A stretch of DNA of 64,000 nucleotides from Mytilus californianus (GCF_021869535.1 NW_026262679.1:92647982-92711981); one strand, 5' to 3'; counted from the first letter of the stretch, positions 14,451 to 55,599 are shown. The notes: generated from the sequence alone by a model not told the origin. A program made the numbers and translations.

Positions 14451-15065
14451 ATCCACCAGAGCGCCAATAAAAAAAGTATACAAACATTGTGAAACGATTT
14501 TTTAGTCAGTTTAAAGCACCGACCATTCATTATTTTTAGGAGTTGATTCTTACTTTTGTTTTAGGTAATTTTATATTAGAGTCGAGAACAATTGTTTGTC
14601 CTAAGACTCCCCCTCACATAAAAAAACACGAATTTTGTTTGTCTTTTTTTGTTTTTATCGGATGAGTCGTTATTGAGAAAGTAGGTAATTAAGTAACATC
14701 TGATAAGAAGGTATCCCAGTTAGCTGTTTTTCTGCTTGAAACTAATCTTTCAAAGTCACCTTGCTCTATCACCGAATTTCTGCTTACCATGAGCAACATG
14801 ACGTGTGCCACTAGACGAGCAGGATCTATTAACCCTTTCAGAGCACCTGATATTACACCCAGTTTTGTTGGGTTCGTGTTGCTCAGTCGTTTGATGAAGT
14901 TTACTAGAGTTGTTTGCCTTTTAGTCGTCTTTCGTTCTTTGTCATGGCCTTGTCAGTTTTCTTCCACTTATGAATTTTGAATATCCCTTGGAAATATCCG
15001 CCTCTTTTTTGGTTTATGTAACTTGTATCTCTTTTCTTCTGTCTCATCTGGATTTTTTTTTTACA

Positions 15066-22000: not shown

Positions 22001-22117
22001 GAAATTAGGTCCGAAATATTGGTATGATTGGTCCGAAATTTTCTTTGATTGCGATTTTTTCTACGACCATGAGAACGGTTTTTACGAACAGTTTTAGAAA
22101 CTATATCCAAAATGTTA
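19088..22117 (-). mobile_element. 5'-truncated PLE copy (A2) directly upstream, in element orientation, of full-length A1: pseudo-LTR tandem arrangement
   Basis: Homology to A1 (offset ~4020) runs from the element 3' end at 19088 up to 22117. There the sequence diverges ('aacagaat|aagactag' versus A1 'aacagaat|cggttcttga'), so the EN domain and the first three TGA sites are missing. Confidence 0.85.
19729..22110 (-). CDS. Linker + RT portion of PLE polyprotein (copy A2), continuous frame with one in-frame TGA (21174-21172); intact RT C-terminus ending at TAA 19731-19729
   Basis: ORFs 21172..22110 and 19729..21036 share one frame. The 435-aa RT ORF keeps 'ITEKLLHQGFRYHKL...' where A1 has a stop. 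Confidence 0.75.
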
Positions 22118-23346
22118 ACAGAATAAGACTAGATATTAATTGATTAAAATTTAAATCTTTATTTTGTCATGATCCATGTGAAGAGATTTTTATTCATGTT
22201 TCTCAGGTTTGGAAACTTTGGAAACTTTTGAAATAAATTTTATAAGAGTTATAATCTTGGTGAATTATAAAGACTACAATCTAGAACAAATTCAATTTAG
22301 TTATGCGACCAATGTTAACATATAGCTTTCACATGTGGACAGCACCAAGCTAAAGTTTTCCCGAGACACTATTTAGTTTGCGTTCTTGTCTCCCAGTTTC
22401 TATCCTGTGGTTACTAAACCTAAATTAAGTACAAATTCTTCGTTTGTAAACATTGATAATTTTTAAGTGACTCTCAAAATTGAATAAATTTTGGTTAGTA
22501 GATTGTTCCATGAACATGTTTACACAGGTAGTAAACACTCACTCACTAGCTATACAGTAAATATGGTGTCCGGTTGAGATTGTGTTTTTTTTGGAGTGAA
22601 TCGTTCCACTTTTTCGAAAGCAGACCTTGTTTTTTCGAGTGAAATTACATATGATAAAATCAATTTACTTTTATTCCGCAAGTATATCACTTTTATTCAA
22701 TACTTGCCAACTTATTTTTAATAATATTCAAGTTTTGAACATTAACTACGCATAATTGTCCCCTATTTCATTTAAAAATACCGAAAATAGTACTAAAATG
22801 GTAAGAAAATTAAATCATTGTCAATTACAAAAAGATAACAAGACACATGCTGTAAATTGTTAATTTTTTAAATCATAGTTTGATGGTCCGACCTTAGCAA
22901 CTTTTGAATAACTGCAATAAAAGCGCTGTCTCTTTAATATATTGGTAATTCTCTAGTATTTGATGATATTTTTGTCTGGTGAACTTCCTCTTTTAAATGG
23001 ATTAGATATCCAGAAAGATATCCATTGTTTGAGCAACAATAAAAAAAATAACCGCTGGATAGCTATCCAATGGATAGACTGTTTATCCATTGGATAGGCT
23101 ATCCAGTGGATAACTTTATCCAACGTTTTGAGCAACTCAGTCCAGGACACCATCTGGTAAGAATATATGGTCATTTTCATGAGTGTAATGGCATACGAAT
23201 AAATGTTATAAAGCTTACACCAAAGGAATTTTAAGGTTAAGGTTATTTCTTGTTTTTATAACAATATTAACGAAGATATCAGAAGAGACTATTTGGTTTT
23301 CAAGAAATTGCTAATAGGTGTTAAAGAGTTATTTGAAAAAAGGTAA

Positions 23347-36640: not shown

Positions 36641-37785
36641 ACTGACCGACCTTAGAAACGCAACACTAGATTATTCTTTTTAATTCCCATTTTCAAATAT
36701 GCAATTTTTGCTAAACAAATATACGAACATATATTTCATTCATTACTTCATTGTTTAAAAGAAAATTGCAGTTCGAAAGTTGAATTGGTAACGTCATTTT
36801 TAATTTTCAAATCATGTGGTATGCACTGAAACCCTGGTTTTCCCCTTGCCAATGGATGTGTCACCGTCGAAAGCAATGACTGCCTGTAACCAACGCCAAA
36901 ATGATTGTCAGAAAGGTCAACCAATTCTGTTCGGCATGTTTTGGGTTCTGTTTTGCACCTTAAGATTTTGCCTTAGTCCCACCCATTACAGTGTGTTTTG
37001 GCAATTATACGGTTGAAACTTTAGGGCTTTAAATGTTTTTCTGCAGTCGATTCTTTGGCATTTCAGTTTATGCGAAACATTTATGGCATGAATCTGTGTG
37101 CCATGGCATTCGGCAATTTGATTAGGAGTTGACGTTGATGCCGTAAACATGTCTCGCAAATGACGTTGCGTAATCAAATTCTATTGACGTGGCCTTGTCA
37201 CTACATATTGATCTGGTCATTGATGGTCATCAACAAATCCCGTCTGCCTGTATCGTTGTTGGAAGGACAGTAAGACGAGTTTCTGACGTCAAACTGTCTG
37301 GTTACAACACGTTCATGTTTTCCTCTCTGCAATGATTCTTATGGGCTGATTCAGTTTTTTATTGCTCAGTCTTGGCAATACGGAGATGCAAAATCGTTTA
37401 ACTGATTTAAGTGTGGGTATGGATTGAAAGAATTGTTTCACGAAGAAAAAAAAAATGAAAAAATCGTTTATGGGTTCCAAATTTCGCTTTAAGAAATTCG
37501 TGCGACTTCAATAACTCAGTATGTTCAATAACCACAGGTAAGTCAGATGTTGATTTTTTCTTAACAGAAAGAAGTATGGTAAGCATGAATAGTAGTTGTA
37601 TGAGGATCAAACATGATTTGGTTAAAAAAAATCAACAAAATGAGTGTTGCGTTTTTAAAGTCAGTCAGTATATGTCATGACGACGGTTTCGTTTGTTTCA
37701 TTCATCTACCCTTTCACGAGCTTGGTATAGAGACATGTTTGTTCACATGACTTAAAATTAACGAATTAAAATGGTATTGAAAGGT

Positions 37786-37885
37786 GCATGGGCCTCGGTG
37801 GCCGAGTGGTCTAAGTAGCCGAACTTTTGTATCACTAGCCTATCAACACTGAGGAATATGATTTGGAATCCCGCACGTGGCAGGT
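37786..37885 (+). other. tRNA-like sequence (probable tRNA-derived SINE head / pseudo-tRNA), not a functional tRNA
   Basis: It has an A-box-like 'tggccgagtggtctaag' and a B-box-like 'ttggaatccc'. The spacing is ~70 nt and no proper acceptor or T stems can be drawn. Confidence 0.2.
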
Positions 37886-38732
37886 GCGCTTGACTCCAAT
37901 CTCAATCAAATAAGATTGTCAGTTTTCCTACCGAAGGTCGATGGTTCTCTCCGGCTTCTTCCACCAATAGAAACTGACCTCCACGAAATAGCACAATAGT
38001 GCTGAAAGTGGCGTTAAACACCAATCAATCAAAGAAGTGATAACACTATTTATTTTTTATTTATAATGTATATGACCGGAAGTAACTTTATTTCTTTATT
38101 GAATCTTTTCATTAAAGAGACTTTGTAAGTTCCAGTTTCTAAGCCAAATAAAAAGTCTTAAAGCAGCACAGTTTGCCTCGAGTTGATGTGAGTGTCTTTA
38201 CACCCAGATATCACTTCCAATATCTGGTGTGGTGTTGAGACAGCTGTATCCATAGAAAAGTAAGCACTGTTCAGTTTTATAGACAAATGCTGTACAATTG
38301 GTTCCATGATGCAGACACAAGTAAGCACAGTAAATCTTTGTTTTGGAATTCTTGGTTAAATAAGAAAGAGTAATTGGGATGGAATCTGTCTTGTCAACAT
38401 GGAAATACCTTGAATCTGTTTTAAAATATTAAAAATACGATATTTAGGTGGAAAATGTTGCAAATATTTACATCGGAAAACAACGGTAGATCAGTTAAAG
38501 TTATACAAAAAATAACCACTCTTAACAAACTTTATTTATCTAATTAATTTATTATCCCTTCTTTATTAAACTTATAGTGGCTATTATGCATATAAATCAA
38601 TAATTTAATAAATTCAAAAGGCAAAGATGCAAACAAACAAAAAATCCACTTCCCTGTTATCTCCTTGTTTTGTCATCTCTTTCTTTTTTTTCAATTCCGT
38701 GAAATTTTAACGTTGTTAGTTATTTTACTTAC

Positions 38733-38843
38733 TGTTAGTACCACCAACATGCCATTGACCCAAAATTCCAGGTGGTGTGCTTACTTCTGTTGTAAAATCT
38801 TCAACAATATCTTGGGATATGGGATAATAGTTCGCCGTTGGAT
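38733..38843 (-). CDS. Candidate downstream exon of multi-CTLD gene (Pro/Thr-rich linker: YPTANYYPISQDIVEDFTTEVSTPPGILGQWHVGGTN)
   Basis: The minus-strand acceptor is 'ataattacttacaatag|atcc' and the donor is 'actaaca|gtaagt'. The exon is 111 nt, phase 1 to phase 1 like all the CTLD exons. Only one frame is open. Confidence 0.3.
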
Positions 38844-39368
38844 CTATTGTAAGTAATTATATGATTTAGTATATATGATGTATAATTGAATAGATATGAT
38901 GATAAAGGGTTAATTTTAATGAAACAGTAGCCTAACTGAACGGTTAAAACATTTTTTTAGATATGCCAACACACGTTCCCCCTACAATCACCTATATACT
39001 TGACTCCAAAAAATGATCATATTACAAAGTTTACCAAGTGTAAGTTCTCGTTTTTCACATTTATGGCAAAATGAGGAAATCACATACATATTCATACAAA
39101 TATACACCCACACTTGACCATGGGAGTATCAGTTTCACTGTTCATTCAGCTTTATCCACATATATAAATGATTTCTCGTTGCAAAAATTGTAAGTCTTTT
39201 CAAAATTGTAAAACTCGATGAGGACGACCAAGGTTTTATTTTCCAAAAAAAAAAAATCATATTTCTGACAAAAAGTATAGACATATGTAACTCATATACT
39301 ATTTATTTTTTTTAAAAATAATTTTAATCGAATCGTCATTTCGATATATCAAGAAAAAACACACATAC

Positions 39369-39577
39369 ATTGACAAAGAAATGGACTTGTTTCCGTTGCT
39401 CGTCTATTATCCCAGTCAAAGCCAACAGTGTAAACAAGTTTAACATGTTGGTTAAGAGCCAATGATGATGGCGCTCCAGGAATCCATGCTGTTTCCGTTA
39501 GATCTGTTCCGTCATTCCATTGGAATGTAATTCCATCTGTTGACGTAAGTCCAATCCAGAAGTCTTTATTATTGTCC
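39369..39577 (-). CDS. C-type lectin domain module C, second exon (…DNNKDFWIGLTSTDGITFQWNDGTDLTETAWIPGAPSSLALNQHVKLVYTVGFDWDNRRATETSPFLCQ)
   Basis: The acceptor is 'atatgttacag|ggacaat'. It holds the WIGL and WNDG CTLD motifs. The exon ends 'tgtcaat|gtatgt', the same position and phase as modules A and B. If that donor is unused the frame continues 'CMCVFS*' to 39349. Confidence 0.6.
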
Positions 39578-40088
39578 CTGTAACATATTTTCAAAGATCA
39601 TTTAAAACTGGCAAGTCCTGAAACGATAATCGTTATATCAAAAGTTACCAGATTCCTCTCGCAGTGCGAATTGAGTAATTATTGATCTCCGTTCCATTCC
39701 ATTATCGCATCAGTAAGCAAGGATTTTAGAATTGCAAGTGGAACCAGTTAGTCCAGTTACTTAGTGTAAACGGCGGTAAAATTCGTGATTCCTTTTGTAC
39801 TGAGGTAAAAAGACGGAAGATTAATCAATATTGTCTTGATTTTCACCGTGTAGGGTGTCTATGCGTATAATTAAAGTGTCTCGGTAGGATTTTCACATGG
39901 TAAGGAGTGTCTACTTACAAATAGAGTGGAAAGTTGGTAGAGAAATTATATTTTAATTTAATGAATGATCAAATAAATTTTAGTAGAATTGTTGTAACAT
40001 GTTTCAAAACGAGTTAATTTCTGGTACACAATTAAGTGTATGTAAAAATAAAAAGTTAGGATCTGTTTTCAGTAGTTATATAACTTAC

Positions 40089-40227
40089 ATTCCCTGGTAG
40101 ACAATTGCATTCTTTGCAACTGTGAACTCTTCATTTGTGTGTAGCATGGCCAGCTCTAATGCATTCATTTCACAATCCAGTTTAGCAGTTTGATAATCAA
40201 CGGAGTAACTCATCGGGTTATAATTAT
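40089..40227 (-). CDS. C-type lectin domain module C, first exon (…NYNPMSYSVDYQTAKLDCEMNALELAMLHTNEEFTVAKNAIVYQGM)
   Basis: The acceptor is 'tcttttatttctgaatgcag|at' and the donor is 'ggaat|gtaagt'. It is 139 nt, the same length as module A exon 1. It holds the 'A..C...A.LA.i.s.EE..F' CTLD signature. Confidence 0.6.
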
Positions 40228-40249
40228 CTGCATTCAGAAATAAAAGACT

Positions 40250-40564
40250 GGTAAGAAAACTCAATGAAACAATATACAGACAACGGTAAGAAAACTCAAT
40301 GAAACAATATACAGACAACGGTAAGTAAACTCAATGAAACAATATACAGACAACGGTAAGAAAACTCAATGAAACAATATACAGACAACGGTAAGAAAAC
40401 TCAATGAAACAATATACAGACAACGGTAAGAAAACTCAATGAAACAATATACAGACAACGGTAAGAAAACTCAATGAAACAATATACAGACAACGGTAAA
40501 AAAACTCAATGAAACAATATACAGACAACGGTAAGAAAACTCAATGAAACAATATACAGACAAT
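40250..40564. repeat. 35-bp minisatellite, ~9 units (ggtaagaaaactcaatgaaacaatatacagacaac)n
   Basis: 'ggtaag' recurs at 40250, 40285, 40320 and so on up to 40530. It lies in the intron immediately upstream, in gene orientation, of CTLD exon 40227-40089. Confidence 0.9.
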
Positions 40565-41099
40565 ACATTATACTGTATAAAGTAGTTGGTCAAAACTCTT
40601 GATTAATTTGCACACAAGTTGACGGATTCTTTTCTAAAATTCAAAGTATCCTACCTTGATGTGCGTACTCTGTGGTTCAGACAACATGTCACAACTATGT
40701 AAAAAATGTTTCAAGATGGCTAAAAAAATATAGAAGGTTGATAAAAGCTTTTGGAATTCAAACATGAAAGAGTACTTTAAAGATTTTTCCTTCGTATAAT
40801 ATGGTTCCATTAAATCAAAATGTTATTCAGTGTCATACATTTCTGCTGAGAGTAGCATTGCACCGTGCAGGGGCGTAGCTAGAATAAAATGATATGCACG
40901 CCGAGCGGAACGAGGCAAAAATTTTATTGGACCATTTTATGCAGAAAATGATATTTTTTTCGGTTTTCGGTCATAGGAGGGTTAAAAGTTGTGCTACATA
41001 GGACTTATAGACAATTTATGAATGCAAAACTATTCAGAATTCTTTTGAATAGGTTAAATCATGGTAAATTGAATACATAAGCAACACATTTTTGTGAGA

Positions 41100-42460
41100 C
41101 AGAATTTACTCAAAATTGTCCAAAATCTGCTCTTCGGGCCTTAGCAGAAACGAACTTCTCCATTACTTTGTCACTATTCACACTGAAATCTGGATGAATA
41201 TGCATTAATGCTAGCGATGATAACCTATCGTTATTCATGGGTGATCGTACATATGTTTTCAACCGACGTAGTACACTGAACGATCTCTCCGCGGTAGCAC
41301 TTGTTTCCAGCATTGTCAACATAATACTCAAAATAGTATCTACAGAAGGACTGGGCTTACTGCATCGAGTGTCTCACACAGCGAAGTTGGCATCTGATCG
41401 TGAGGTGTTATACACCAGCGTGTTTGCCATCGAGCAACCTCCCGATTGAATTTGTCTAAATTACATGCCAGGTCAGTCTCGTACGTATGTTAGTTAGTCA
41501 GCATACCCCCCCCCCCCCCCCTTTTTGAGGGTTTAAATTAAGGTTTGCTGGAAATCAGACTATGAGGTTTTTTTACCCGGGGTATGAAGAACTACGATAA
41601 ATTCGAGTTCAAACGTTGTAATTTACACAATCTATAGTATAGTAATAATTTGGTTCTGTTATTAACAATTTAATTAAGGAGGTGTGTACTTTTCCAAATT
41701 GACTGTTTTTCGAGGTTGGGATTTTCATAAACACTATTTATTTTTTTGCCGGTATACTTTTGACTCAGACATGATTTTTTTTACTATTGAATTTGACACA
41801 ATTTTAAAGTCATTTCCACATACCCCATCAAATCCAAAGAGTTACCCCTGGCATATGCTATTCCATGATTTTGATTTTTGGGAAACGTTTTACATGTTTT
41901 ACACACTAAAAGTGACTTGGAAGAATTAAAATCAACATAGCTCGCCGGGAAGTCAAAATTATTTACATCTTTCCAGTCGGATGTTAGTGATTGCATCTTA
42001 ACTTCTGTCATCTGCAAATTGGAATCGTGCAGACTTGACATGTCTGGTACGGAGGGGTGTTGGCTTTGGAGGTGACGGTCGAAACTGAGCTGGAGCTTGC
42101 AGTTGCATTTTCACTGTCATGATTTATTCTATCATACTCTGGCAAGAATTGTTGGGAAATGGGTTCTTCTGAAGAACTTTTCGTTTCTATTGAAATGGGT
42201 TTAGTAAAAAAAAAACTGTCAATAGTTTTCCATTTAGCCTTTTCACCTTTTTCGCTACGTTTCGACGTCGTGTCGTGTAACTGTTCAACGCCGGAAATTT
42301 GATGTGCTCTTTTTTCACCATGCCGATGTGCACGCAACTGCGTGTTGGCCTATAGGGAGCTACGCGCCTGGCACGTGTGCAATAGTAGTATCTGATTGCT
42401 GTTGATGGAGACAATTTTGACCTAATATTACAGATGTTTTTTGTAAAATTTAGCATCGAA
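41100..42460 (-). mobile_element. Internally deleted hAT-superfamily DNA transposon remnant
   Basis: The minus-strand 41110..41331 reads '...LETSATAERSFSVLRRLKTYVRSPMNNDRLSSLALMHIH', the hAT C-terminal dimerisation-domain signature. It is preceded by '...FNREVARWQTRWCITPHDQMPTSLCETLDAVSPVLL'. An upstream fragment reads '...KAKWKTIDSFFTKP...'. Confidence 0.5.
41506..41521. repeat. C16 homopolymer
   Basis: 'cccccccccccccccc' adjoins the hAT remnant. Confidence 0.9.
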
Positions 42461-42977
42461 GAAAATCTATAACCAAATTGAGAAAATATGTATCTGAAAA
42501 TGTACTTTCGATGGATAACATTAATTTAAGGATAAAACCTCAACAAATGTCATACTCTTTTTACAATTGCAGTTAACAGACATCCTGAGGCATTTATAAT
42601 TTGGTTGCTTGTTTAAAAATTCTAGATAAGGATGCAATACTGTAATAATCATTAGAGTAGATGATAGACCTAGCGCGAAATAAATTAGGGAAATTCGGTC
42701 AATATCTCTTTCAATTTAAAATTAAGAAATGTGATGACCTTCAGATAAAGATTAATTCGTTTCTTAATGTAGTTTCAAATATTGTATCAAAATTACCTGA
42801 CATACATGTAGCTTAATAACTTTTTGACTTCATGGAAAATTGAAGAAAAAGATATATAGATATATTATTTGCTCTGCTGAACATTTACATACCGTTGGGT
42901 ATTATAATTATCAACTTTCTAATATTGACAATGCTAAAACATTCAAACATTAAAGTGGTAAAACGTTTGTTATTTAA

Positions 42978-43122
42978 GAAATGAATGCTTCTTTTTGTAA
43001 TTTTATTGGGGTGTAAAAGTGTTGACCGAAGCACATTTTGTATGAAGCGCTTCATTCTAAAAATGAGTGCACGATCAACACTTTTACACCCCAATAAAAT
43101 TACAAAAAGAAGCATTCATTTC
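42978..43122. mobile_element. Foldback/MITE-like element with perfect 48-bp inverted arms
   Basis: 'gaaatgaatgcttctttttgtaattttattggggtgtaaaagtgttga' (42978-43025) is the exact reverse complement of 43075-43122. The spacer is 49 bp. Confidence 0.7.
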
Positions 43123-43538
43123 TTATAATTACATTTTTATGTTAATAAGACCATGCGAATGTAACATTCATTTTGATACGAAGGCTAATTTTTGAATGAC
43201 GCGCTATCGGATTCTCGTGAAACATACATGCAATGTAATCATATTTGAAATAAAGAACAAAACATTACACGTAAGGTGTTCATATTTCATTTGATACAAC
43301 TATTTTACTGTTGATTCGAATGTTTGAATTTTAAACTTCCTATAATTTTTTTTTGGGGAGGGGTATTTGAACAGTCAGTTTAAGTTCAATTTGAAATCCG
43401 TGTATACATTAATAATTTCTCTGTTAGTGCAAAGATCGAATGTGAAATCGTCTATAAGCTATAAAATAGTGTTGCCGTTAATAAAGCACAAAATTCTACG
43501 ACAGCATACAGTATGACTGAAGTGCATCTCAAAACTGT

Positions 43539-43750
43539 TACAACTTACACTGACATAATCCGTGAGGAAGTCTGGTAGATTTAGTTTTTGACACCCATGT
43601 ACCATCGACCTTGTCCACCGCTATAGAGACGTTTGCATCCGGATTGGGAACGGAGTGACCTGGTTTCCAGTCCGTATAAACCACATTTTCGAACATGTTT
43701 TGCCAGGTTAAATGTGCTCCATTACCATATAATCCTATCCATACATCACC
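43539..43750 (-). CDS. C-type lectin domain module B, second exon (…PLTGDVWIGLYGNGAHLTWQNMFENVVYTDWKPGHSVPNPDANVSIAVDKVDGTWVSKTKSTRLPHGLCQ)
   Basis: The acceptor is 'ttgtttttgtgtaag|acc' and the donor is 'tgtcagt|gtaagt'. It holds the WIGL, W..G.P and DGTW CTLD motifs. Confidence 0.55.
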
Positions 43751-44259
43751 AGTCAGAGGTCTTACACAAAAACAACATAATTTATTAATACTTTACAGAT
43801 TAGTCTTGTTTAGTGTGACCCCATACACAATATGCATAAAACTTTCACAATAAATATTTCTGGGAATACATCAAAATATTTCATATCTCATGTGATGCAG
43901 AGAAAGCTTATACACTGTTTGCTGCCAAACCCAATTAAATTAATTTTGAAAAAAACAATTGTTTTAACTATCCCTTAATATAATTCAAGTATATACCCTA
44001 AAAGAATACACCTCATATCCGAGAAATGAACAGAACAGTGCGTATATTTCGAATGTGAATATGAATCAATACAAAGTTATATGATACAAAAGCTAATTTT
44101 ATGCACTGTATGCGCATTTTGAAAATTTATTTCTCGTTAGTGACGCTCCATTTCAAATACGAACAATCCTTAAGTATCAAATAATGAGAAATTATAAAAC
44201 AAAAATAACATAAAAATGCAAAATTCAGCTGAAGAGCGTCTAAGGATTTCCCACCCCAT

Positions 44260-44460
44260 GAATAGAATACCTTAGCTGTATTCTGCTAAATCTTCAGAAT
44301 GTTTGGCCCCCCAATGCTCTTCAACTTCGATGCTTTATTTGGACTTATTACTTTTTTATTCGAGCGTCAATGCATGATGAATCTTTTGTAGAAGAAACGC
44401 GCGTCTTGAGTACAAAAGTATAAGCCTGGTATCTTTGATGAGTTTTTTTATCGGAAGGAA
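44260..44460 (+). repeat. SINE-like repeat with degenerate hammerhead motif (third copy)
   Basis: 'gcatgatgaatcttttgtagaagaaacgcgcgtcttgagtacaaaagtataagcctggtatctttgatgag' has CUGAUGA>CAUGAUGA and GUC/GAC>AUC/GAA changes. Confidence 0.5.
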
Positions 44461-44564
44461 AACTTCAGAATTTTATAAATTTTACTTCTTTCTGCATGAT
44501 GGAAAAGTTTTAAGTACCGACGTCAAAGTAAAATACCAGTACAAAAGTACAGTGTTATGGTCTC

Positions 44565-45160
44565 AGAGACTTAGACCCCGTTCACACTAGCTTTTTTTAA
44601 TCGATCTAAATAAAACCAGTTAGCGTTCACAATATATTCTATCCTAACGATCTCTTTCAGTCTCATCTAAACCACTGCGTTCACACTACAAGTAAAAAGT
44701 TTAATCGATCCGACTTATTGCCTGTGAAATTGTAAACACTGTGTAAAAATAGAAATATTAAACCAAATTAAGTGTGTTGATACACACGCTTGCAAAAAAT
44801 AATGGATGAAGTTATTGTTGTTCAAATGTTGATACTTCTGTTCGTATAGTTTTCGTTAATTTTCAGCCCTTTTATGTTAGTGATCCATTTTGTAATATAT
44901 TTCGCGTGTAATTTTGCCGCCATACATGCGCACACATTATTTTCGACTCAATCGTACTAGTTTAGATCGATCTCTGCGTTCACATTTAAAGTAAGATCAG
45001 TTTACTTTAGATCGATTCAAACTAAACTACCTCTTTTGGTGTTTTAGTTTAGACTGATTCAAGATCGATTCAAAGCGTTCACATTGGGCTTAAATCGATC
45101 TAAAGTGAACCGATCTAGTTTAAATCGATCTAAATGTCCAAGTGTGAACGGGGTATAACA
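44565..45160. mobile_element. MITE-like nonautonomous DNA element with terminal inverted repeats and subterminal direct repeats
   Basis: The ends are 'gaccccgttcacact...' and '...agtgtgaacggggtat'. It contains multiple internal 'gttcacac' and 'aatcgatctaaa' repeats. Confidence 0.45.
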
Positions 45161-45326
45161 GTTGCATGAACAGCAGTTTCTTCGACCATTTGGAAGTAAT
45201 ACATATTTTAAAGATATCAAAGCTAATTTGATTCACTATTAAAAGGTACAGTTGAAAAAAGATGTTCAGAACTTCTATAAGTATTTTTCAATCTACAGAT
45301 GTATGACTGGTCTTAAAAATACATAC

Positions 45327-45471
45327 TCATAAGTTATTAATTCTTTTAATAACGTAATGGCAACTGGGTTAGACAACACAGCTAATTGTCCACCTAGGTT
45401 ATAACATTCCCGCGAGGCTTCGTAAAAGTTGAAATCTCCATGCACAAATTCCATGTTTGGATGAGGGGGTG
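45327..45471 (-). CDS. C-type lectin domain module B, first exon (PPHPNMEFVHGDFNFYEASRECYNLGGQLAVLSNPVAITLLKELITYE)
   Basis: The acceptor is 'ctattgttttgcag|cacc' and the donor is 'acttatga|gtatgt'. It holds 'A...C...G..LA......'. Its phases are compatible with the exon at 43750. Confidence 0.5.
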
Positions 45472-47140
45472 CTGCAAAACAATAGTATGCAAGTATAAAA
45501 TAATTTCACATGAGAGAATACAGAAAGACGGTGAATATTTTTTTCATTAAATCAAAAACGATTTTCACAACTATTAAATATAGTGTATATATACAAACGC
45601 TAGTAGCAAAGTTGAATACAAAAATTCGAATAGAGCATTACAGACATTCGATTTCATTTTTATTTCTTCAGATTGTGACCGTTTAGCTGTGCTGGATGTA
45701 TAAATAGTAATACGCAGCCAAATCAGATCGAAACGGGGACGTTACATCCAATGCTTCGAATACTGAGAATGAATCGCCGCGTTTGTGCAAGTAAAGGAAA
45801 CCTTATTATGGGCGACCTCATGATTTGGTAAGCCATTATCGAAATCCCGTCCTCTTTTTCTCGACTGTGATATCATAAATGCAACTTATCGCAGGATTTT
45901 TACTTACATGAGCAACTCAACGGAGGTAACTAGTGGAACAAGAACTACATACCACTCTGCACGGAGCACCTGTGATCACCTCCGGTTTTTTGGTTAGGTT
46001 CATATTCATCAATTTGTATTTATCTGTGTAATACGTTGTTGTTGTGGTTTGTCTTGTCGTCGTTTTCCTTTTTGGTCATGGTGTTGTCTGTTTTAACTTT
46101 TGTTGTCTTTCGGGAATTTTTTTCCCGGCTTATTTTTTATCTTTTCTTTTTGCAACAATTGATCAAGCGGTCGACTTGCTCTCATTTTCCTGTTGCAGTT
46201 AAAAAAAAACAGTCTACGTTTCCTACTTTGAAGAAACCTTTCTATTGTTTTAACTACTTGTTAATGTGTTATCGTTTTGATTATTGATAATAATACTGCA
46301 CTCAGCGGAAGTTAAGCAAATGACAATTAAGCAATCAATGTACGAGTATTTTTTTAAGCAAAGAAACAGTATTAAATATTTGTTATATTAGCGGTTTCAT
46401 AATAAGACAAAATCGGTCTTTGAAACTATACAAACGGTTTACCAGGACTGGTTCAAACAAACAGATTTTGAAAGCAGAGAAAACTGTGACCTTATAATCA
46501 GCATGACTTTATCAGATGACAATACGAATACTGAAAAATCCATGCTAAAAATAAGGCGTAGGTACTTTAATTCAGTCACGGACCAGCGAGTGTGTTCTAG
46601 TACCTGATAATAATTTAAGGCATCTCTTCAAGCCATATTTTCCCCCAGCAAACTTTTTATACGCAACCGGAACAATTGAATGGAGCAATTATATATGATA
46701 ACATAAATTACACATACCCGATAATAATTTGAGGCATCTCTTATCCTCACTTCAAGCCAAAAAGAAAATTAGACAGAAATATACCCAAAATAATAAGTAT
46801 AAATTTCACATAACCATAAGTAGAAAAAGGAATCTTTTAATCGATTAAACGCTTAAAAATGCTCAACGAAAATAGCCAGTCGGATCTGGTAATAAAATCA
46901 TGATTAATAGTTTTTATCAATTTGTAATGGAATTTAAAATAGAATGACATGCATGACCCATACATTGTAACAAAAGACTGTTTCAACTATCAAATATAAA
47001 TGAAAATTTAACACAAAACAGAACACTGAAACATAATTTGTGAAAGAAAGGAGCAAATTTTAGATGAAAAAAATATTTAGAAAAAGGAATTTTGAAACAT
47101 GTACTCTACTATTACATATATACATTAAAGTGATACACAC

Positions 47141-47337
47141 CATAACATAGAGGGCGGTTAAGTTCCGTGTAGTAGCCAGTCTTCCACAATACATAAGCAT
47201 AGTCCTTGCTAAACTTTCCACATTCAAATTGTGGTTCAGGGGTCGCCCATGAAGAAAAGTCTAATGTGTCGCCATCATTCCAATGACAAAGTTGGTTTTG
47301 ACAATATACAGACATCCATACGTCATCGGAAATGCCC
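47141..47337 (-). CDS. C-type lectin domain module A, second exon (GISDDVWMSVYCQNQLCHWNDGDTLDFSSWATPEPQFECGKFSKDYAYVLWKTGYYTELNRPLCY)
   Basis: The acceptor is 'gtatttctttaaatag|gggc' and the donor is 'ctatgttatg|gtgtgt'. It holds the WNDG and W..PEP motifs. Confidence 0.55.
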
Positions 47338-47511
47338 CTATTTAAAGAAATACCTATACGTTTCATTATAACTATACCATAGATTTTCTATCAAATAAGA
47401 ACTTGTCTTATACAATTTTGTTAATGTTAAATTTGTTCTGTGAATATGGTCGATACTTTGTGAAGCAATAACCCCTTTTGCTACCTCCTATAGACTATAT
47501 ATACTTACGCA

Positions 47512-47650
47512 TTCATGATAAATTGTGCTGCCATGTTGTTCATTTGGTCGTTGTTAATTTTTACCAGTTTCATTCCAATGCTTAGACAGTAATCTATTGA
47601 ATCATAATAATTCAAAGTGGATGGTCCTAGATAGAAATATGGGCTGAAAC
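47512..47650 (-). CDS. C-type lectin domain module A, first exon (FSPYFYLGPSTLNYYDSIDYCLSIGMKLVKINNDQMNNMAAQFIMNA)
   Basis: The acceptor is the textbook 'ttgttttttttttctgcag|g' and the donor is 'aatgc|gtaagt'. It is 139 nt. Confidence 0.6.
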
Positions 47651-47814
47651 CTGCAGAAAAAAAAAACAATAATTGAAAGTTCAGTTGTATTATATGTAAC
47701 ATTTGATATATTTATTTCTTTTAATTTTTGGTTTTTATAAGATCTAAAGTTAAGTATGAATGAAGTAGATGTGTGATGTAAGTCAGTGAGATAGGAACCA
47801 AACGAAATAACAAT

Positions 47815-47880
47815 AAAAAAAAGTCTGAAGAGGTCCTGACTTGGGGCAAGCACATGTACGTGCAACCTCTCCCTCGTTGT
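47815..47880 (-). repeat. Fragment of PLE 3'-UTR hairpin motif
   Basis: 'gaagaggtcctgacttggggcaagcacatgtacgtgcaacctctccc'. Confidence 0.4.
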
Positions 47881-48529
47881 CTCGATTAGTTAAATCAGTA
47901 AGGAAAAAGAAAAATATAATATAGGCATTACTGATAACAAAATACAGGTACACGTAAAATAGTTCTACATAGTAGAGTATTACTCAGAGAATGCTAACAA
48001 ATCGTAATACTTAATCTACTGGTATAGAAATCAAGACTTCTAACATTCTAACATTCTCGGCTTTACTTCCGAGTAGAATTTATTTGCGCGCTGATCTGTT
48101 TGAGTGCAAGATATACCTTGCATTTTTCCGTCATCATCATTGTTATTCAATATTTTGATTTTTTGTTAGCTGACTGACAGTTTCCACCTCACTAAGTCGA
48201 TAGTATGCATAGAGCTACATTTTAATTATGAGTTGTGATACATACACATGCAAATAAATTAAAATGTTAGCATTTGATATCTTTTATAACAAAAAATAAC
48301 AAAAAAAGGCTTGTGTATCCCTTTTCTTTACTTCTCATAGATTGGACGCTCTTTATTACAATGACTATTATTTTGAAATACAGAAATTCAATTGGTTCAT
48401 GAAATATTTGTTGTTGTTTTTTTTTCCCTACATGCCTATATATTTTCTAAACAAAAGAAAATTGGTGTATGTATCTTTATGTGTGTTTTTGATCCCTGTG
48501 AATAAGATGTTTCCAAACACCGTATGTCC

Positions 48530-48870
48530 AAACTCTACATTGGCTAGAGGTATAGGGAGAGGGTTGAGATCTCACAAAACATGTTTAACCCCTCCGCATT
48601 TTTGCGCCTGTCCCAAGTCAGGAGCCTCTGGCCTTTGTTAGTGTTGTATGTTTTTTTAATTTAAGTTCATTTATATGTTTTGGAGTTTAGTGTGACGTCC
48701 ATTTTCATTGAACTAGTACACATTGTTTAGGGCCCAGCGGAAGCCCGCCTCCGGGTGCGGGATTTTCTCGCTGTTTTGAAGACCCATTGGTGGCCTTCGG
48801 CTGTTTTCTGCTCTTTGGTCGGGTTGTTGTCTCTTTGACACATTCCCCATTTCCATTCTCAAATTTATCT
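48530..48870 (+). repeat. 3'-terminal fragment (~330 bp) of a PLE related to A1/A2
   Basis: The segment reads 'ggctagaggtatagggagagggttgagatctcacaaaacatgtttaacccctccgcatttttgcgcctgtcccaagtcaggagcctctgg', then 'gggcccagcggaagcccgcctccgggtgcgggattttctcgctg...gggttgttgtctctttgacacattccccatttccattctcaaatttat'. This is collinear with the A1 3'UTR in RNA orientation. Confidence 0.7.
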
Positions 48871-49305
48871 ATTTTACAATTTTTATATTTGCATTCTTTT
48901 CTCATATTTTGGCATAAACAAGTAAGTGTGACGTGTTTATAAAGCAAAAGTGTCAAACAGAGCATTATGGTGCAAGAACAATCCCAACAATAATTGAAAA
49001 AAAACACGTGATACATTTCGTGCGTCTGAAGCGCTTTTCTGGATTTGCCTTCATCAGAAACGATTAAAGCTAAACCTATATACATGTATATATATAGGCA
49101 GTGGGTAACATATCAGTGATTTTCAATTTTTTGGAGGGCTGATAAGAGCATTTTTTAGGGGTACCTGTATAACCCCTTTTGCCCAACCCCTTTGTCGCTT
49201 ATGAAACTTTCACTTAATCACAGAGACAATCAAGTTTTGACAAGGCAAATGGTGTGCAACCGAAATGGAAACATAAAATTGTAATTTGTCAGATTCCAGC
49301 AAGTT

Positions 49306-49331
49306 TGTGTGTGTGTGTGTGTGTGTGTGTT
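49306..49331. repeat. (TG)13 microsatellite
   Basis: 'tgtgtgtgtgtgtgtgtgtgtgtgtg'. Confidence 0.95.
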
Positions 49332-50049
49332 TGGCTTATTTGTAGACTTCTGGGTTTTGGAAAATTGATTTGACGCAAATCAATTATAAAAAAGAGGATT
49401 TTTTTCTTGTTGAGAAAGATCATCTTGTATACAATTTTATATTACTGACATTAGATATTGGAAGAATGATACCAATAGAACTAATAAATGAACCCTGTTA
49501 TATATAGTTCTGTATCCATTTTTTTTTTAAATAATACAGATTCAGTGTATCGTATTATAAAATGCCATACCTTCTTATTAATAAAGTCAGTACATACGTC
49601 GATACTGCTGCATTACATATGCGCGGATTTGTATTACATTTGCACGAGAAATATCATTACGTTTGCGCGGATTTAAGAATAGTAATATGACATTTACAAA
49701 CTGTTTCGTCCATGCCAAGAATACTCGTCAGATGGCTTTATATATCAGTAGTCCCAGACATAACGGTGGTAGAATGTGCACCAGTTCTAAGTTTTGCCTT
49801 ACACGACTTCTTCCTTTATTTTAGCGATAGCTCTTGTTCTGGTTCTATCATAAACGTACTTATGGTCCAAAAGGACACCAGCATATTGAATGGATATTCG
49901 CCCAGTAAATGACTTTTAAAAAGTTAGCTGTATTTGCTAGCATGGTAAACATACAGGTAGATCTATAGATTAAAGTAAATTTAATATTTTTTGCGCAACT
50001 TTAATGTCCGTGAATCTCAAAATCCGCCTGTCGATACATGTCTACATAC

Positions 50050-50104
50050 CTCTTATTATAACCACTTGCAACAAAAGCATCCAAACCATCTTCAAAGACA
50101 ACAT
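50050..50104 (-). CDS. Candidate signal-peptide exon of the multi-CTLD gene (MLSLKMVWMLLLQVVIIR + 1 nt)
   Basis: It has a hydrophobic h-region. The donor is 'aataagag|gtatgt'. It ends in phase 1, matching the phase-1 start of the exon at 47650. There are no other supporting data. Confidence 0.25.
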
Positions 50105-53100
50105 TGCAAAAGTCTATTTACAAGAATAAAAACTTGCAAACACTAAATTAAATGGCTTTCTTTTTGTTTAAGGAGAACTGCGACCGAAGTATACATACAA
50201 ATGTTTATAAAATGATGTACGCTATACCGTCATCAAGGCTTTAAGTTATTTCAATGTATAGTATTTCCAAGAACATACATGTATGTACCATGAAGAAAAT
50301 ATGTGTTATCTAATTGAATTTGAAATTAAAGTTCAATTATATATATATATTATATTTGTCTCGAGCTGTTTGTTAGCAAATTAACTCTGGGAAGTCAAAA
50401 CCTGAATACATAAACCAATACATGAAGATTAATAGACATTACAAAACAAATTTGAATTTAAAGCCGGCATGTAAACAATAGTATTGGTGTAAACAGAAAA
50501 AAGTACGTATGAACGCGTCGTCTTTAGTTTTTGTTTTGACCCGATCAATACACAGTGTACACGTATCGAACATCGTTACAGGTTCAAATGTGGTCTTCGT
50601 GTATTTGGGCCTGTTATTAAATATCTTTGCCATTCAACACCCTTTTCTATATTGACCTACATTGAATGTTTGTCTCAATTGGAAACAAATATAACAATTG
50701 ATAAAGCAATTCTATCATTGACCAACAAGATAGGGCCTATTTGTCTGGTATCTATTTCACTCGAAAGTCAAAATTGAAAAGTAGTTGAATAGAAGGGTAT
50801 TAACTCATACTAGAATTTGAATATATTCGAAATGACTATCTTAAGTAAGGTTTTTGTTTTGTCTTATTGCACTTTCATCTGGTAATGCATATACCAGTAG
50901 TCTCTTTATTCGCATCGAGAGAGATACACTTTTTCTCCAATTTTTTTTTTAAATTTTAAACAAGACTCTTCAAAAATATATTTTAAAGAGTGGGAAAATA
51001 TAAGAATAACACAAGACATTGTGGTGGAATTTGTTTCTATAATAATTTTATATAATGCATAGGAAAACCCTAAAGTTTTTTTTTTCAGATAATTTCTTAT
51101 TGTAATTTCAAAACTGTTCAGACAGTTCGCTAGCAGGTCAATCCAGTTTTGTTCATTAGTTTTTCAGATCTTTCAGTACTTTGTTGAATTTGAAAAAAGG
51201 TAAATAAATACTACTGAACAATCTGGAAATAGAATGAACAGTCTGAAAATAGAATGAGCATATCTTAATTGACTCCAAGTGATGTGTCTAAATAGTACCG
51301 AATTTCCCACAGTGGATAAGTCTGAAAGTTTATTGACAAAATGAACACGAAGGATTTAATGGACGTGTTCAGATCGAAATGAATTGTGTATGAAGAGATA
51401 TGTCTTCCGTTATGTTATCTCTATGCATTTAGACGTGGCCATGGATGTCAGACCACACTGTTAATACTTCTTAGATTGAACAGGGACTTTCTATACTAGT
51501 AAAGACTGTCCCTGGATTGGAGTGCAGCATTAGATAATAACCAGTATAAAGCTGCAATCTAATTGACGTTTCAATTTTTTGAAATTTTGTCTCTAAAAAA
51601 TTATCAGCATAGGGTAGCTCTTCTCATAAACAATCTTTTTGTCAAACCAAGGATTTGTATAGTACAAATCCTTGGTCAAACGGTCAAAGGTATATTAAAA
51701 TAAATAGTATTCTTAGCAGTTGGGTTGACATTCATAAGGGGTTCCTCAGGGTCCTATACTCGATCTCTTACTGTCCTATGATTTATTCTGTTTATAAAAA
51801 TGACCCTCTGTATACTTATGCAGATGACAATATTTCATCTTACTGTTACTCGGATTATGTTTTAATTTCTTCTTTAGAATAAGAATAATTTAACTTATTG
51901 AGTGGTTCAAAATAAAATGCAGGCAAATTTCAGGTTTTAGCAGTTGGGAAAAAGACGTATAACAAAAACCATGTATACGTATCTAAAGTGCTTATCTTTC
52001 ATGTGAATCAACTGTTAAACTTCTTGGCATTTTGATTCTCATATAAGTTCAATACTCAGGAAGGAAGGCATCTCAGCAACAAAATATTCTAAAACGTTTG
52101 GAAACGTATTTGAACAAGCTAAGCAAGCTAACTATAAAGTCTACACATTTATTTTGAGGAATTTCAATCTCTTACCTTTGGCACGGCATTTCTGTAGTGA
52201 GAATTAAAAAAAAATTGAAATAGTACAAGAAATAGCACAAAGGTTTGTGTATGAAGACCATTAAGGCCCATGTCAACAGTTGATTGAAAAGGTACCTTCA
52301 CTGCACATGAAGACGGAGGTCAACGGCAATTTAACTTTTAGTTAGCGCTCTCCATTTAAACATATATGCTTAATTTTGCCAAGTTATTCGTTTTCATCCC
52401 TCCCCCCGAAATGAATGGTCGTCCCTTAACAATGCACATTATGTAAATTGCAATTCAAATGAACCATGGAAATATAGCTAATAACATCCCAAAATAGATA
52501 GCACAAAGGCAATATCTCCAAAATGGGATTCAGTGGTTGTCTGTCAAACTTGATTTTCGTTGTTGTTTTGCCCTAAATCAATCTGTTGGTTTTCCTGTAT
52601 GAATTTTTTCCCCCATTTTATCATGTTTGGGCCTTTTTATATAGAGGACTATAATACAGTTTGGATTTTGATTATTATTTATGGCCTTGCAGTGCTTACA
52701 TCAATGTCTTTTCGACTCTGGTGGATAGTTATCTCATTTGCAATTAATCCATATCTGTTTTTAAATTTTTGACTTCCCATGAGGGTCTTGCACAGTTTTC
52801 AAGTTCATACAGAAGCTTCTGTAAATTGAAAGAAAATAGCAGTATCGTTTAACTTCACGTCACACTTTATAGATATCCCCTCACTAAATAATTAAAGATA
52901 GTTGTATGAACATTTTTAACACATTTATCCTATCGAACTTGAAATAAATATCACAGATAGTCAAATCTACCTCATATCTTGGCTTAAATCAAGAAATTGA
53001 CAATGAAAGTTGGTTTAGAACAAAGCCTTATGACAAACGAGTGGATTTCAGCTTTCTATCAATTTCTAGGTAGCAACATCCCAACAGCTTCTGAATATGG

Positions 53101-54249
53101 ATTATCTCTCTACCTGATGATACAATAAGCTAGAGCTTGCATTCCATACCATTGATAGAGGGTTGCTGCTAAGAAAGTTTCATGGATGCCATCATGAGTT
53201 GGTTGACCGTTATGAAATGTCTGTGTCACTAATGATAACCAAAATAATCAATTTGTTGTAGCCACAATCCTGTTCTCTTTTTCTTGTTTGTGACATCACA
53301 AAATTAGACTGACCAACAGGTTTTTACTTACCATGAGCAATATGGGTAGTACCTAGGAGGTTGGTTTGCTCAATCTTAAGTTGTCTTTGAAGTGCTTTGT
53401 GGGCAATTTTTGTTTTTTGTGTTTTTGATTCCTTGCTCTTTGTTACATTCTCTTCCAACTTGTGTTTTTTTTTAATTGTTCCTGTGTTATCTTTCACCTC
53501 TTTTTTTTTTTAGCAAACATGATCAATGTTGCAAGTTCTATTAACCCTAAACATGTCTTCTAGTTTTCAAGGTAATAGCAAAAAAACAAAATATTGGTAA
53601 AAAATCATCATTATGGGGCAATAACAGTCTACCTAGGATTTCGGTCATGTTTGACTTATTTGTAGATCTTGTCTTGCTGATCATTTTTGCCATTTGAAGT
53701 CTCTCTCTACCTATTATACTTTTCAAGATAATAGGCAAAAATAGTCTTCTAAGAGTAATGCCTCGTACAAGGATTCGTCCAACAGTTTTGGTGTAAGTGG
53801 ACATTTTGGATGTCTCTATTTGTATTCTTATATTCATTTTCCTGTCTTTTGTTTTATAACATGATGCACATGCTTTTTTATAAACGTTAAACAGATCATG
53901 TGTTCATGTCAGTGTCCAGATGATGCTTTGAATGTGTAAAACACAGAAAGGGTTATGTTAGCACTCCAGGAAATTCCAAATAGTTCAAATTAAGAAACAA
54001 TAGCCAGCAGGTTAGGGATTGAATAAGACTTGAAATCAAAATTTCATGGGCAGTAACTTTAAAATAGTCCAATAGATTTTTGGGACATTTTCAGTAAGAC
54101 CTTGTTGTGATGGCTATTTTTACTTGTTAGTTTTTCTCTAAATTCTTTTAATAGTTTTCGATATATTAGCTAAAAAACTGCAGTTTGCACCTTATTTTCT
54201 ATTATTGGCCTTAGTGGCCGTCTTGGTTGATCTATCTAGATCCAAAATC

Positions 54250-55010
54250 ACATAAAGATGCCAGACAGAACAACACACCACAAGCATTCTGAGAGTATTA
54301 ATGGCAATACATAGTCCTCTACCGAACAAAACAAATCATTCTACTGGAACAAAATTTTAACTTGATCTATGAATTGTCATGGTGTAAACTATATAAGAAA
54401 TCAATATTTTCAAGTATAAGGAAAGAAAGAGTGGAAAACTAATTATTTGCATGAATTTTCCAAGAACCATAATCTCTGCACAAAATCATCATACTGGAAC
54501 AAAATTCAAACCGGACCTATAACTTGTCATGGTCAAATTACATACTAAAATCAAATCAATATCTTTATTTAAAGCATGACGAAAAAAGTGTGGAAAACTG
54601 ATTTCTTGCATGAATTTTCGAAGTCTGAGAACTTTAACTCTGCAAAATAATCATCGGGACTGAATATAATTCGAACTTGATCTGTAATGGTAAAACTAAA
54701 TACCAAACATCAAATCAATATCTAAGCATGACGACAAAGTGCGGACAACTGATTACTTGGCGTGAATTTTGAAGTCCAAGGACCATAACTCTGCACAAAA
54801 CCATCAGACCGGAACAAAATTTAAACATGATCTGCAACTGGTCATGACAAAACTAAATACCAAATATCAAAACAATATCTTCAAGCACGAAGAAAAAAAG
54901 TGGAAAACTGATTTGTTGGACTGACTGATGGACAGACAGACGGACGGACGAAGTGCAAACCTATAGTCAGTCCCCTTTGACTTCGTCGATAGGGGACTAA
55001 TAAGGCATCT
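54250..55010 (+). mobile_element. pearl/Helentron-like nonautonomous element (four ~165-bp internal subrepeats)
   Basis: The subrepeats read '...ctgcacaaaa(t/c)catca(t/g)actggaacaaaatt(c/t)aaac...gatctg(c/t)aa...caaatcaatatct...gtggaaaactgatt'. It ends 'ctgactgatggacagacagacggacggacgaagtg...tagtcagtcccct...aggggactaata' (a GACGG/ACAG tetramer run plus terminal hairpin). Confidence 0.55.
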
Positions 55011-55599
55011 GTATATCAGATATGAATAATCCAGCTGTTTTACCTTCTGAAACATAAATAACTATTTAGCATCGGTTTGTCATGTCTGTCTTGCATTTTG
55101 AGATTTACATTGCAGGCAAGACAAAAATCACTAAAAATGTTCTTACAATTTAGTATTTGTGGTTAACAAATGTAAACCTTCGATTTAGTTAACAATGGCA
55201 AAATGTGTTCTTTGGTGCCAAACATTGACAAATACAATTTTCCTTGCATATAAATTTGTGTATTTGTACATTTTTATTTTTTCTGATTCTGGGTCTTGTT
55301 TGTTTTGTTCATCAAATATATGTTTAGTTTGAACTAATTCTCCTCTTCCTTTCTGAATCCATGTTTTTGGCCCTTCTCCATAAAGTTTGTGTAGGTGTTG
55401 ATTTCAAGTAGCTGAGTGATAGCAATCTGAAATATATATGTATTGATATATAATTTTGATTAAAATTGTCATTCAAGGGCAATTAATCCTAAGTTTTTAG
55501 TTTTTAAAAGTTTATCTGTATCAGCTATAGATTCTGCAAATAACATAAACTAAAGGCTCCAGTATTGCTAACATAGCACATCTGCATAAAGCTTATACA

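Follow-up and report, generated by a model that had tools for sequence, protein, structure and literature searches.

Exon and domain organization

The stretch of DNA analysed here, 64,000 nucleotides of one strand from Mytilus californianus (GCF_021869535.1, NW_026262679.1:92647982-92711981; 'the window', to which all positions refer), is free of N and carries on its minus strand a gene for a protein with C-type lectin-like domains (CTLDs). In all likelihood this is a single gene of nine coding exons that specifies a 475-residue protein composed of a signal peptide, three CTLDs, a linker and a C-terminal PAN/apple-like domain. The coding sequence runs from 50104 to 38198 and amounts to 1428 nt when joined, with zero internal stops; all internal exons are preceded by AG and followed by GT(A/G)(A/T)GT, every junction thus being canonical. 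A preliminary description made from the sequence alone had placed the gene at 38733-50104, but the gene reaches further, its ninth exon (38415-38198), with the C-terminal domain and the stop codon, having been missed.

Coding exon 1 (50050-50104, 55 nt) holds the ATG and an 18-residue hydrophobic signal peptide (MLSLKMVWMLLLQVVIIR) and leaves in phase 1 through a GTATGT donor. CTLD1 is formed by exon 2 (47509-47650, 142 nt; phase 1 in, phase 2 out), which contributes the first half of the domain (β1, α1 with the first of four conserved cysteines, C1, and α2), and by exon 3 (47141-47337, 197 nt; phase 2 in, phase 1 out), which contributes the second half with a VWMSV core and the last conserved cysteine (C4, Cys130). 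The two halves of CTLD2 are encoded by exon 4 (45327-45471, 145 nt) and exon 5 (43549-43760, 212 nt; VWIGL core), and those of CTLD3 by exon 6 (40089-40227, 139 nt) and exon 7 (39369-39577, 209 nt; FWIGL core). Exon 8 (38733-38843, 111 nt, phase 1-1) encodes a 37-residue linker, and exon 9 (38198-38415, 218 nt including the TAA stop) the PAN/apple-like domain. The 3' untranslated region (38086-38197) contains AATAAA at 38100-38095 and again at 38092-38087; a transcript contig discussed below (L002) ends at 38086, where adapter sequence follows.

The presence of three minus-strand CTLDs, each encoded by two exons that are split just upstream of the strand bearing the WIGL motif, had been recognized in the preliminary description and is borne out by the exon reconstruction. 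The exon sizes given there were right for 145 + 212, 139 + 209 and 197 nt, but the first exon of CTLD1 (47650-47509) is 142 nt long rather than 139: no AG/GT pair yields the smaller size, and the corresponding exon of M. edulis is likewise 142 nt. The exon pairs total 339, 357 and 348 nt for CTLD1, CTLD2 and CTLD3, respectively, all divisible by 3 as had been proposed, and each module is entered in phase 1, interrupted by a phase 2 intron and left in phase 1, giving an uninterrupted joined reading frame. All three CTLDs also end as described, at LC(Y/Q) plus one nucleotide ahead of a GTAAGT, GTATGT or GTGTGT donor. The signal-peptide exon (50104-50050) and the linker exon (38843-38733) suggested at the same time fit the phase scheme, and M. 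edulis has a homologous 55-nt first exon. The designation of the linker as Pro/Thr-rich was overstated, since P, T and S together make up only 30% of its residues; it is predicted to be disordered (predicted local distance difference test, pLDDT, <40).

Symmetric 1-1 modules are expected for shuffled extracellular domains (Patthy's rule) and are no peculiarity of this gene. The three CTLDs share the site of their internal intron, a split codon and four residues ahead of the D(V/F)W of the WIGL strand, so that the split is older than the triplication of the domain. Pairwise identity among the three CTLDs is 19-28%, and the arrangement is therefore an old one, not the outcome of recent tandem duplication. 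The introns between modules are large (1.6-3.3 kb). No further CTLD exons were found outside 38198-50104 when the product and an orthologue were compared with the whole window by tblastn, and no RNA genes were found at 37000-52000 by Rfam and tRNA scans.

The only strongly hydrophobic segment of the product is its N-terminus (peak Kyte-Doolittle value 3.0), which is predicted to be a cleavable signal peptide, and a hydrophobicity scan along the product revealed no transmembrane segment. Since it lacks such a segment, the protein is probably secreted and soluble.

The identity of the CTLDs, as assigned in the preliminary description, is supported by a match of Pfam Lectin_C (PF00059) to three stretches of the joined product (73.1 bits, E = 3.7e-20; cut-off 22.6), with scores of 29.2 bits for CTLD2 and 34.1 bits for CTLD3 as single domains. 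The best sequence matches in the PDB were to CTLDs of DEC-205, the mannose receptor, the yolk-sac IgY receptor, PLA2R, Endo180, tetranectin and lithostathine. Each of the three domains has both C1 and C4 as well as its version of the WIGL core, and these core fold residues, together with the conserved Trp, are invariant. An AlphaFold2 (AF2) model of the last 220 residues, built on an alignment of 76 sequences and useful for CTLD3 only, gave a pLDDT of 85-92 for this domain; a full-length model of an orthologue (nine-sequence alignment) had a pLDDT of 30 and was discarded. A Foldseek comparison of the CTLD3 model with lithostathine, SRCL and CTLD4 of the mannose receptor returned target-normalised TM-scores of 0.65-0.79 with an r.m.s.d. 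of ~2 Å over ~113 residues.

The domain encoded by exon 9 comprises ~71 residues and has four invariant cysteines in the arrangement C-x3-C-x6-C-x9-C. A profile of the C-terminal domains of the family, searched against the PDB, matched the N (PAN) domain of HGF (E = 0.002) with the cysteines aligned. Pfam PAN_2 matched five of seven family members (best E = 4e-4), and PAN_4 (E = 0.0018), PAN_1 (E = 0.0035) and PAN_3 (E = 0.0076) matched two of the seven each, whereas the sequence from the window itself matched DUF7043 only (E = 0.0052 for linker and domain together, 0.11 for the domain alone). The Pfam matches are thus weak but consistent, leading us to regard the domain as probably PAN/apple-like.

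Transcripts and orthologues

Two intronless RNA-seq contigs (L002 and L003, from runs SRR13891816 and SRR13891787) are 93-98% identical to the window and probably derive from M. coruscus, as they are most similar to a gene model from that species; a literature search for the two runs gave no result. They align in six blocks with ends that match exons 4-9; the exon 4 block, for instance, extends from 45473 to 45327 with 98% identity before the alignment jumps to 43760. A poly(A) signal and adapter sequence are found at the 3' end of the transcript contigs. The contigs thus show CTLD2, CTLD3, the linker and the last exon spliced in series. The predicted junctions from 4-5 to 8-9 agree exactly with these transcripts of a relative, but the join between CTLD1 and CTLD2 is not confirmed in this way; junctions 1-2, 2-3 and 3-4 are predicted from conservation and from the gene models of other species, not from transcripts.

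Annotations of M. edulis (two, made independently), M. trossulus and M. galloprovincialis contain orthologues of 477-481 residues that are ~81% identical over their full length. These orthologues include XP_071171077.1 ('lymphocyte antigen 75-like', M. edulis), XP_076101033.1 (M. galloprovincialis) and XP_063431556.1 (M. trossulus), all with the same order of signal peptide, three CTLDs, linker and PAN-like domain. When all GT/AG boundaries compatible with the M. edulis RefSeq protein were sought by brute force, a single solution emerged, with exons of 55, 142, 197, 145, 212, 139, 209, 111 and 224 nt in the same phases as in M. californianus. The loci of the two species are collinear, including an upstream neighbour with an MCM_bind match, and exon 2 is 91.5% identical to that of M. 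edulis at the nucleotide level. The full-length orthologue models in three Mytilus species, the exon plan of M. edulis and the spliced contigs together uphold the earlier proposal of one modular gene with several CTLDs.

The alternative that the locus contains three separate tandem genes, each with a single CTLD and its own start and stop, is effectively refuted by these data. It would accommodate the size of the introns between modules and an ab initio model from M. coruscus whose start lies upstream of CTLD2, but the N-terminus of that model maps within an intron, and the model continues past the donor of exon 5. Moreover, no module has its own initiator and signal peptide, none has an in-frame stop and each runs from a phase 1 AG acceptor to a phase 1 GT donor; the transcripts connect CTLD2, CTLD3 and the last exon, and a single protein of 477-481 residues is described by each of four annotations made independently in three species.

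Comparison with M. edulis gave a ratio of nonsynonymous to synonymous substitution rates (dN/dS) of 0.41 overall and of 0.34-0.49 for individual domains, with a synonymous excess at p = 8e-7. These values indicate that the gene is under purifying, fairly relaxed selection.

Several observations weigh against a nine-exon gene with the domain content proposed here. The RefSeq model for M. californianus (XP_052101581.1, 'C-type mannose receptor 2-like', 220 residues) is 100% identical to the C-terminal 220 residues encoded here and covers nothing else, omitting the first 255 residues; its start is a Met within CTLD3, and it seems to represent a 3' portion of the intact 475-residue gene. Both transcript contigs have the same unrelated 5' stretch (L002 1-120, L003 1-150), which meets the exon 4 acceptor precisely and takes the place of exon 3. 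Neither the window nor the M. edulis locus contains a match to these 120-150 nt, which could represent an alternative first exon, an insertion specific to the lineage or a chimera created in assembly. The open reading frame (ORF) of the contigs begins at a Met inside CTLD2 and has no signal peptide. No transcript or protein containing CTLD1 was found for the M. californianus/M. coruscus lineage in the databases searched, and a search for homologues of the N-terminal 180 residues, meant to find transcripts with CTLD1, returned only the M. coruscus CTLD2 model. CTLD1 by itself scores 20.5 bits, below the Pfam cut-off of 22.6, but is still retrieved by an iterated CTLD hidden Markov model (HMM) and by matches in the PDB; its dN/dS (0.49) is below 1 with marginal significance only (p = 0.043). 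The PAN assignment lies under all Pfam gathering scores (the one PAN match listed with a score, to PAN_1, has 13.3 bits, compared with a cut-off of 21.4), and in the AF2 model this domain, with one helix and strands, has a pLDDT of just 54-68.

Some of these points would be explained if the product in M. californianus and M. coruscus were shorter, containing two CTLDs (CTLD2-CTLD3-PAN) or one and being expressed from an internal or alternative promoter, with exons 1-3 unused or confined to a minor isoform. The 5' sequence shared by contigs from two independent runs, the span of the RefSeq model from CTLD3 to the end and the outcome of the search for CTLD1-containing proteins are all in line with such a product. 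We nevertheless consider it unlikely, as exons 1-3 are intact, with canonical splice sites and zero stops or frameshifts, and the CTLD1 reading frame is open in four species with the dN/dS given above. In addition, a start at an internal Met, with no signal peptide ahead of disulfide-bonded extracellular modules, would probably yield a non-functional protein, and the contigs are raw Logan assemblies that may be chimeric or reflect minor isoforms. The full-length, nine-exon gene remains the preferred reading.

Two paralogues, XP_071148757.1 ('macrophage mannose receptor 1-like') and CAC5368022.1 from M. coruscus, share ~40% identity and the same domain order with the protein described here. They resemble it in a CTLD2 with C1 and C4 only and in a four-cysteine C-terminal domain. 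In XP_071148757.1 the linker has grown to a repetitive P/T-rich stretch, and the paralogue gene lies on a different chromosome-scale contig. With the M. edulis orthologue as query, four of 1.84 billion cluster representatives were retrieved at E <= 1e-30, and a literature search for a Mytilus family that combines CTLDs with PAN/apple domains found nothing specific. The family defined by a signal peptide, three CTLDs and a PAN-like domain is small and apparently Mytilus-restricted.

Repeats and neighbouring sequence

Intron 5 contains several repeats. A degenerate hAT-type transposon remnant lies on the minus strand at 41113-42525, with broken ORFs upstream; for one of its ORF fragments a match to the hAT C-terminal dimerisation domain (PF05699) was obtained at E = 1.6e-5. 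Immediately upstream of exon 6, at 40250-40563, a 35-bp unit is repeated nine times with 98% identity, and this array expanded in the M. californianus lineage, since the homologous site of M. edulis has a single copy. A long and nearly perfect inverted repeat, noticed by eye at ~42990-43140 and including ATGAATGCTTCTTTTTGTAATTTTATTGGGGTGTAAAAGTGTTGA together with its complement, looks like the hairpin of a miniature inverted-repeat transposable element. In intron 1, a (CA)n microsatellite was likewise read by eye at 49310-49335, and a fragment of a repeated element of ~4 kb is found at 48534-48868.

Two adjacent copies of this ~4 kb element are marked by minus-strand ORFs of 318-480 codons at 15065-18426 and 19087-22128; a Pfam search with the long ORFs of the element (15-22 kb) gave no hits at E <= 0.01. 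Intron 2 of the M. edulis orthologue contains a 2.1-kb copy with 96% identity, so that the element has been active recently and is shared between the species. The start of the window (1-4823) is occupied by a satellite array with a unit of 642-643 bp in at least 7.5 copies that are 98.8-100% identical and run past the window start, each unit carrying the same open frame of 103-116 codons. On the other side of the lectin gene, the minus strand at ~52800-55490 is collinear with positions 782-4685 of the M. edulis locus, which lie at and downstream of the end of an M. edulis gene (1-946 of that locus) matching PF09739 (MCM_bind). This region probably represents the end of the upstream neighbour gene and an intergenic spacer.

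Cysteine patterns, calcium sites and proposed function

The state of the cysteines and calcium-binding motifs was read from an iterated-HMM alignment of 933 CTLDs from all proteins retrieved, in which C1-C4 are the four columns with 86-94% Cys. CTLD1 has the pattern CCxC, with EPQ at the EPN site and WKT at the WND site; CTLD2 has CxxC, HSV and WVS, and CTLD3 has CxxC, APS and WDN. Pairwise alignments agree with these readings: in CTLD2 (against tetranectin and DEC-205) C2 is replaced by Val or Ser and C3 by Lys, and in CTLD3 (against CTLD1 of the mannose receptor) C2 is replaced by His and C3 by Ala, the HMM putting the adjacent Val at C2 in the latter case. In CTLD1 the C2 column is occupied by Cys105 and the C3 column by Tyr, and alignment with DEC-205 sets 'FEC' opposite 'EDC'. 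The preliminary description had reported that both cysteines of the inner disulfide are replaced in every domain; this applies to CTLD2 and CTLD3, but CTLD1 retains C2 and has lost only C3. It was correct in finding no EPN or QPD in any of the domains, but the site in CTLD1 is EPQ and not 'PEP', which was one residue out of register. As judged from the aligned motifs, the canonical Ca2+ site 2 (EPN/QPD plus WND) is absent in all three CTLDs.

Among 774 complete CTLDs from the other hits, 740 (95.6%) have the pattern CCCC, 27 (3.5%) have CxxC and seven show single losses; one protein carries eight CxxC domains by itself. Paired loss of C2 and C3 is therefore uncommon but precedented, and single loss, the state of CTLD1 here, is the rarest. 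The proteins of the M. edulis complex differ from that of M. californianus in having Phe at C2 of CTLD1, so that both C2 and C3 are gone, EPT or VPT at the EPN site of CTLD3, and Ser in place of Cys462. The paralogue XP_071148757.1 differs in turn in having both C2 and C3 in CTLD1 and a canonical CTLD3 (CCCC, EPN, WDS). Across species the EPN site of CTLD3 can be arranged as a decay series from EPN through EPT and VPT to APS or SPS.

The cysteine losses had been described as coordinated, but they did not occur in a single event. The paralogue, at ~40% identity, has CxxC in CTLD2, C2 and C3 in CTLD1 and CCCC in CTLD3, and the losses among the domains were therefore sequential: CTLD2 lost C2-C3 before the paralogues split, and the cysteines of CTLD1 and CTLD3 were lost later. 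The loss in CTLD3 is recent, as the paralogue retains both C2-C3 and EPN there.

Loss of the inner disulfide and of the sugar site could also signify relaxed constraint in a gene that is decaying towards a pseudogene. An overall dN/dS of 0.41 is high for a structural protein, and the stepwise erosion of the EPN site in CTLD3 and the orphan cysteine in CTLD1 could be taken in the same sense. This explanation is very improbable, since at least four species have an intact ORF, synonymous changes are in highly significant excess, C1, C4, WIGL and Trp are invariant, a relative expresses the gene and splices it correctly, and CTLD3 is modelled confidently as a CTLD.

CTLD1 has an additional C-x4-C pair (Cys78 and Cys83, in CQNQLC, encoded by exon 3 at 47141-47337) that flanks the loop connecting the WIGL and W-x-DG strands. 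It is kept in all orthologues and in paralogue XP_071148757.1, whereas Cys occurs in ~2% of the 933 other CTLDs at those columns, and it may form a family-specific hairpin disulfide.

The cysteines that are present in M. californianus and absent from the orthologues of the M. edulis complex are Cys105, at C2 of CTLD1, and Cys462, the lineage-specific fifth cysteine of the PAN-like domain, which the probable M. coruscus transcript has as well. The product has 14 cysteines in total, an even number, and therefore Cys105 and Cys462 might pair with each other or form dimers. Such a bond might be an inter-domain staple that links CTLD1 to the PAN-like domain and closes a ring, or an inter-chain bond between two molecules. 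The M. californianus protein might then be an intermediate in the dismantling of the long-loop disulfide, with the orphan C2 re-paired with Cys462, a conjecture that we regard as doubtful. If true, it would amount to a re-wired CTLD disulfide and not to a plain loss.

In other systems, CTLDs that lack a Ca2+ site have proteins, polymeric glycans, ice or mineral as ligands, and PAN modules make protein or carbohydrate contacts. As none of the three CTLDs has Ca2+ site 2, canonical Ca2+-dependent binding of monosaccharides is unlikely. Possible protein binding, as put forward in the preliminary description, is a reasonable conjecture. Loss of the C2-C3 staple would free the long loop to adopt new shapes, and the protein may act as a soluble multivalent binder through remodelled, more flexible long-loop surfaces together with the PAN module. 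Its targets could be proteins, polymeric glycans or mineral and matrix surfaces, and the most plausible role would be in extracellular recognition (humoral immunity) or in matrix assembly. Both the class of ligand and the biological role are entirely inferred, a further reservation about the picture drawn here, and a soluble multivalent recognition or matrix protein is our best guess.

Known systems offer partial parallels. The tandem CTLDs of the vertebrate mannose receptor family (MRC1, MRC2/Endo180, PLA2R1 and LY75/DEC-205), which provided the best PDB matches, also mostly lack the sugar-binding residues, but these receptors have 8-10 CTLDs with C2-C3 kept, whereas the Mytilus protein has three CTLDs and a PAN-like end. 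The hallmarks of that family (ricin-type Cys-rich domain, FNII and a transmembrane helix with an endocytic tail) were not found in the product, where Pfam detects only Lectin_C and weak PAN matches, or in the hydrophobicity scan; the RefSeq names 'lymphocyte antigen 75-like' and 'mannose receptor 2-like', which derive from this family, reflect best-hit similarity only. Lithostathine, the top structural match of the CTLD3 model, struthiocalcin, type II antifreeze protein, group V receptors such as dectin-1 and CLEC-2, and the snaclecs, whose ligands are non-canonical or not sugars, likewise combine the CTLD fold with the absence of the EPN/WND Ca2+ site. All of these differ in retaining the C2-C3 disulfide and in being single-domain proteins or membrane receptors. 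Group V CTLDs, which lack canonical binding, still bind glycans or proteins (PMC7618208). Two conserved disulfide bridges are usual in C-type lectins, and the site 2 motifs of molluscan members vary widely (PMC5877582, PMC7618208). The soluble molluscan C-type lectins with multiple carbohydrate-recognition domains (CRDs), such as those of scallop and Hyriopsis, are also secreted and also have several tandem CRDs with variable site 2 motifs, but two conserved bridges are described for C-type lectins (PMC5877582), whereas the Mytilus protein has one bridge in two of its domains and an added PAN-like domain.

The gene is an ordinary intact one with orthologues already annotated in related mussels, and it neither reveals a new mechanism nor opens a long-standing question. 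Its practical value lies in a correction of the annotation, from the 220-residue XP_052101581.1 to a 475-residue gene. For the family, the stepwise decay of the sugar and Ca2+ site and of the second disulfide among paralogues and species is a modest natural experiment on the dispensability of C2-C3 for the CTLD fold.

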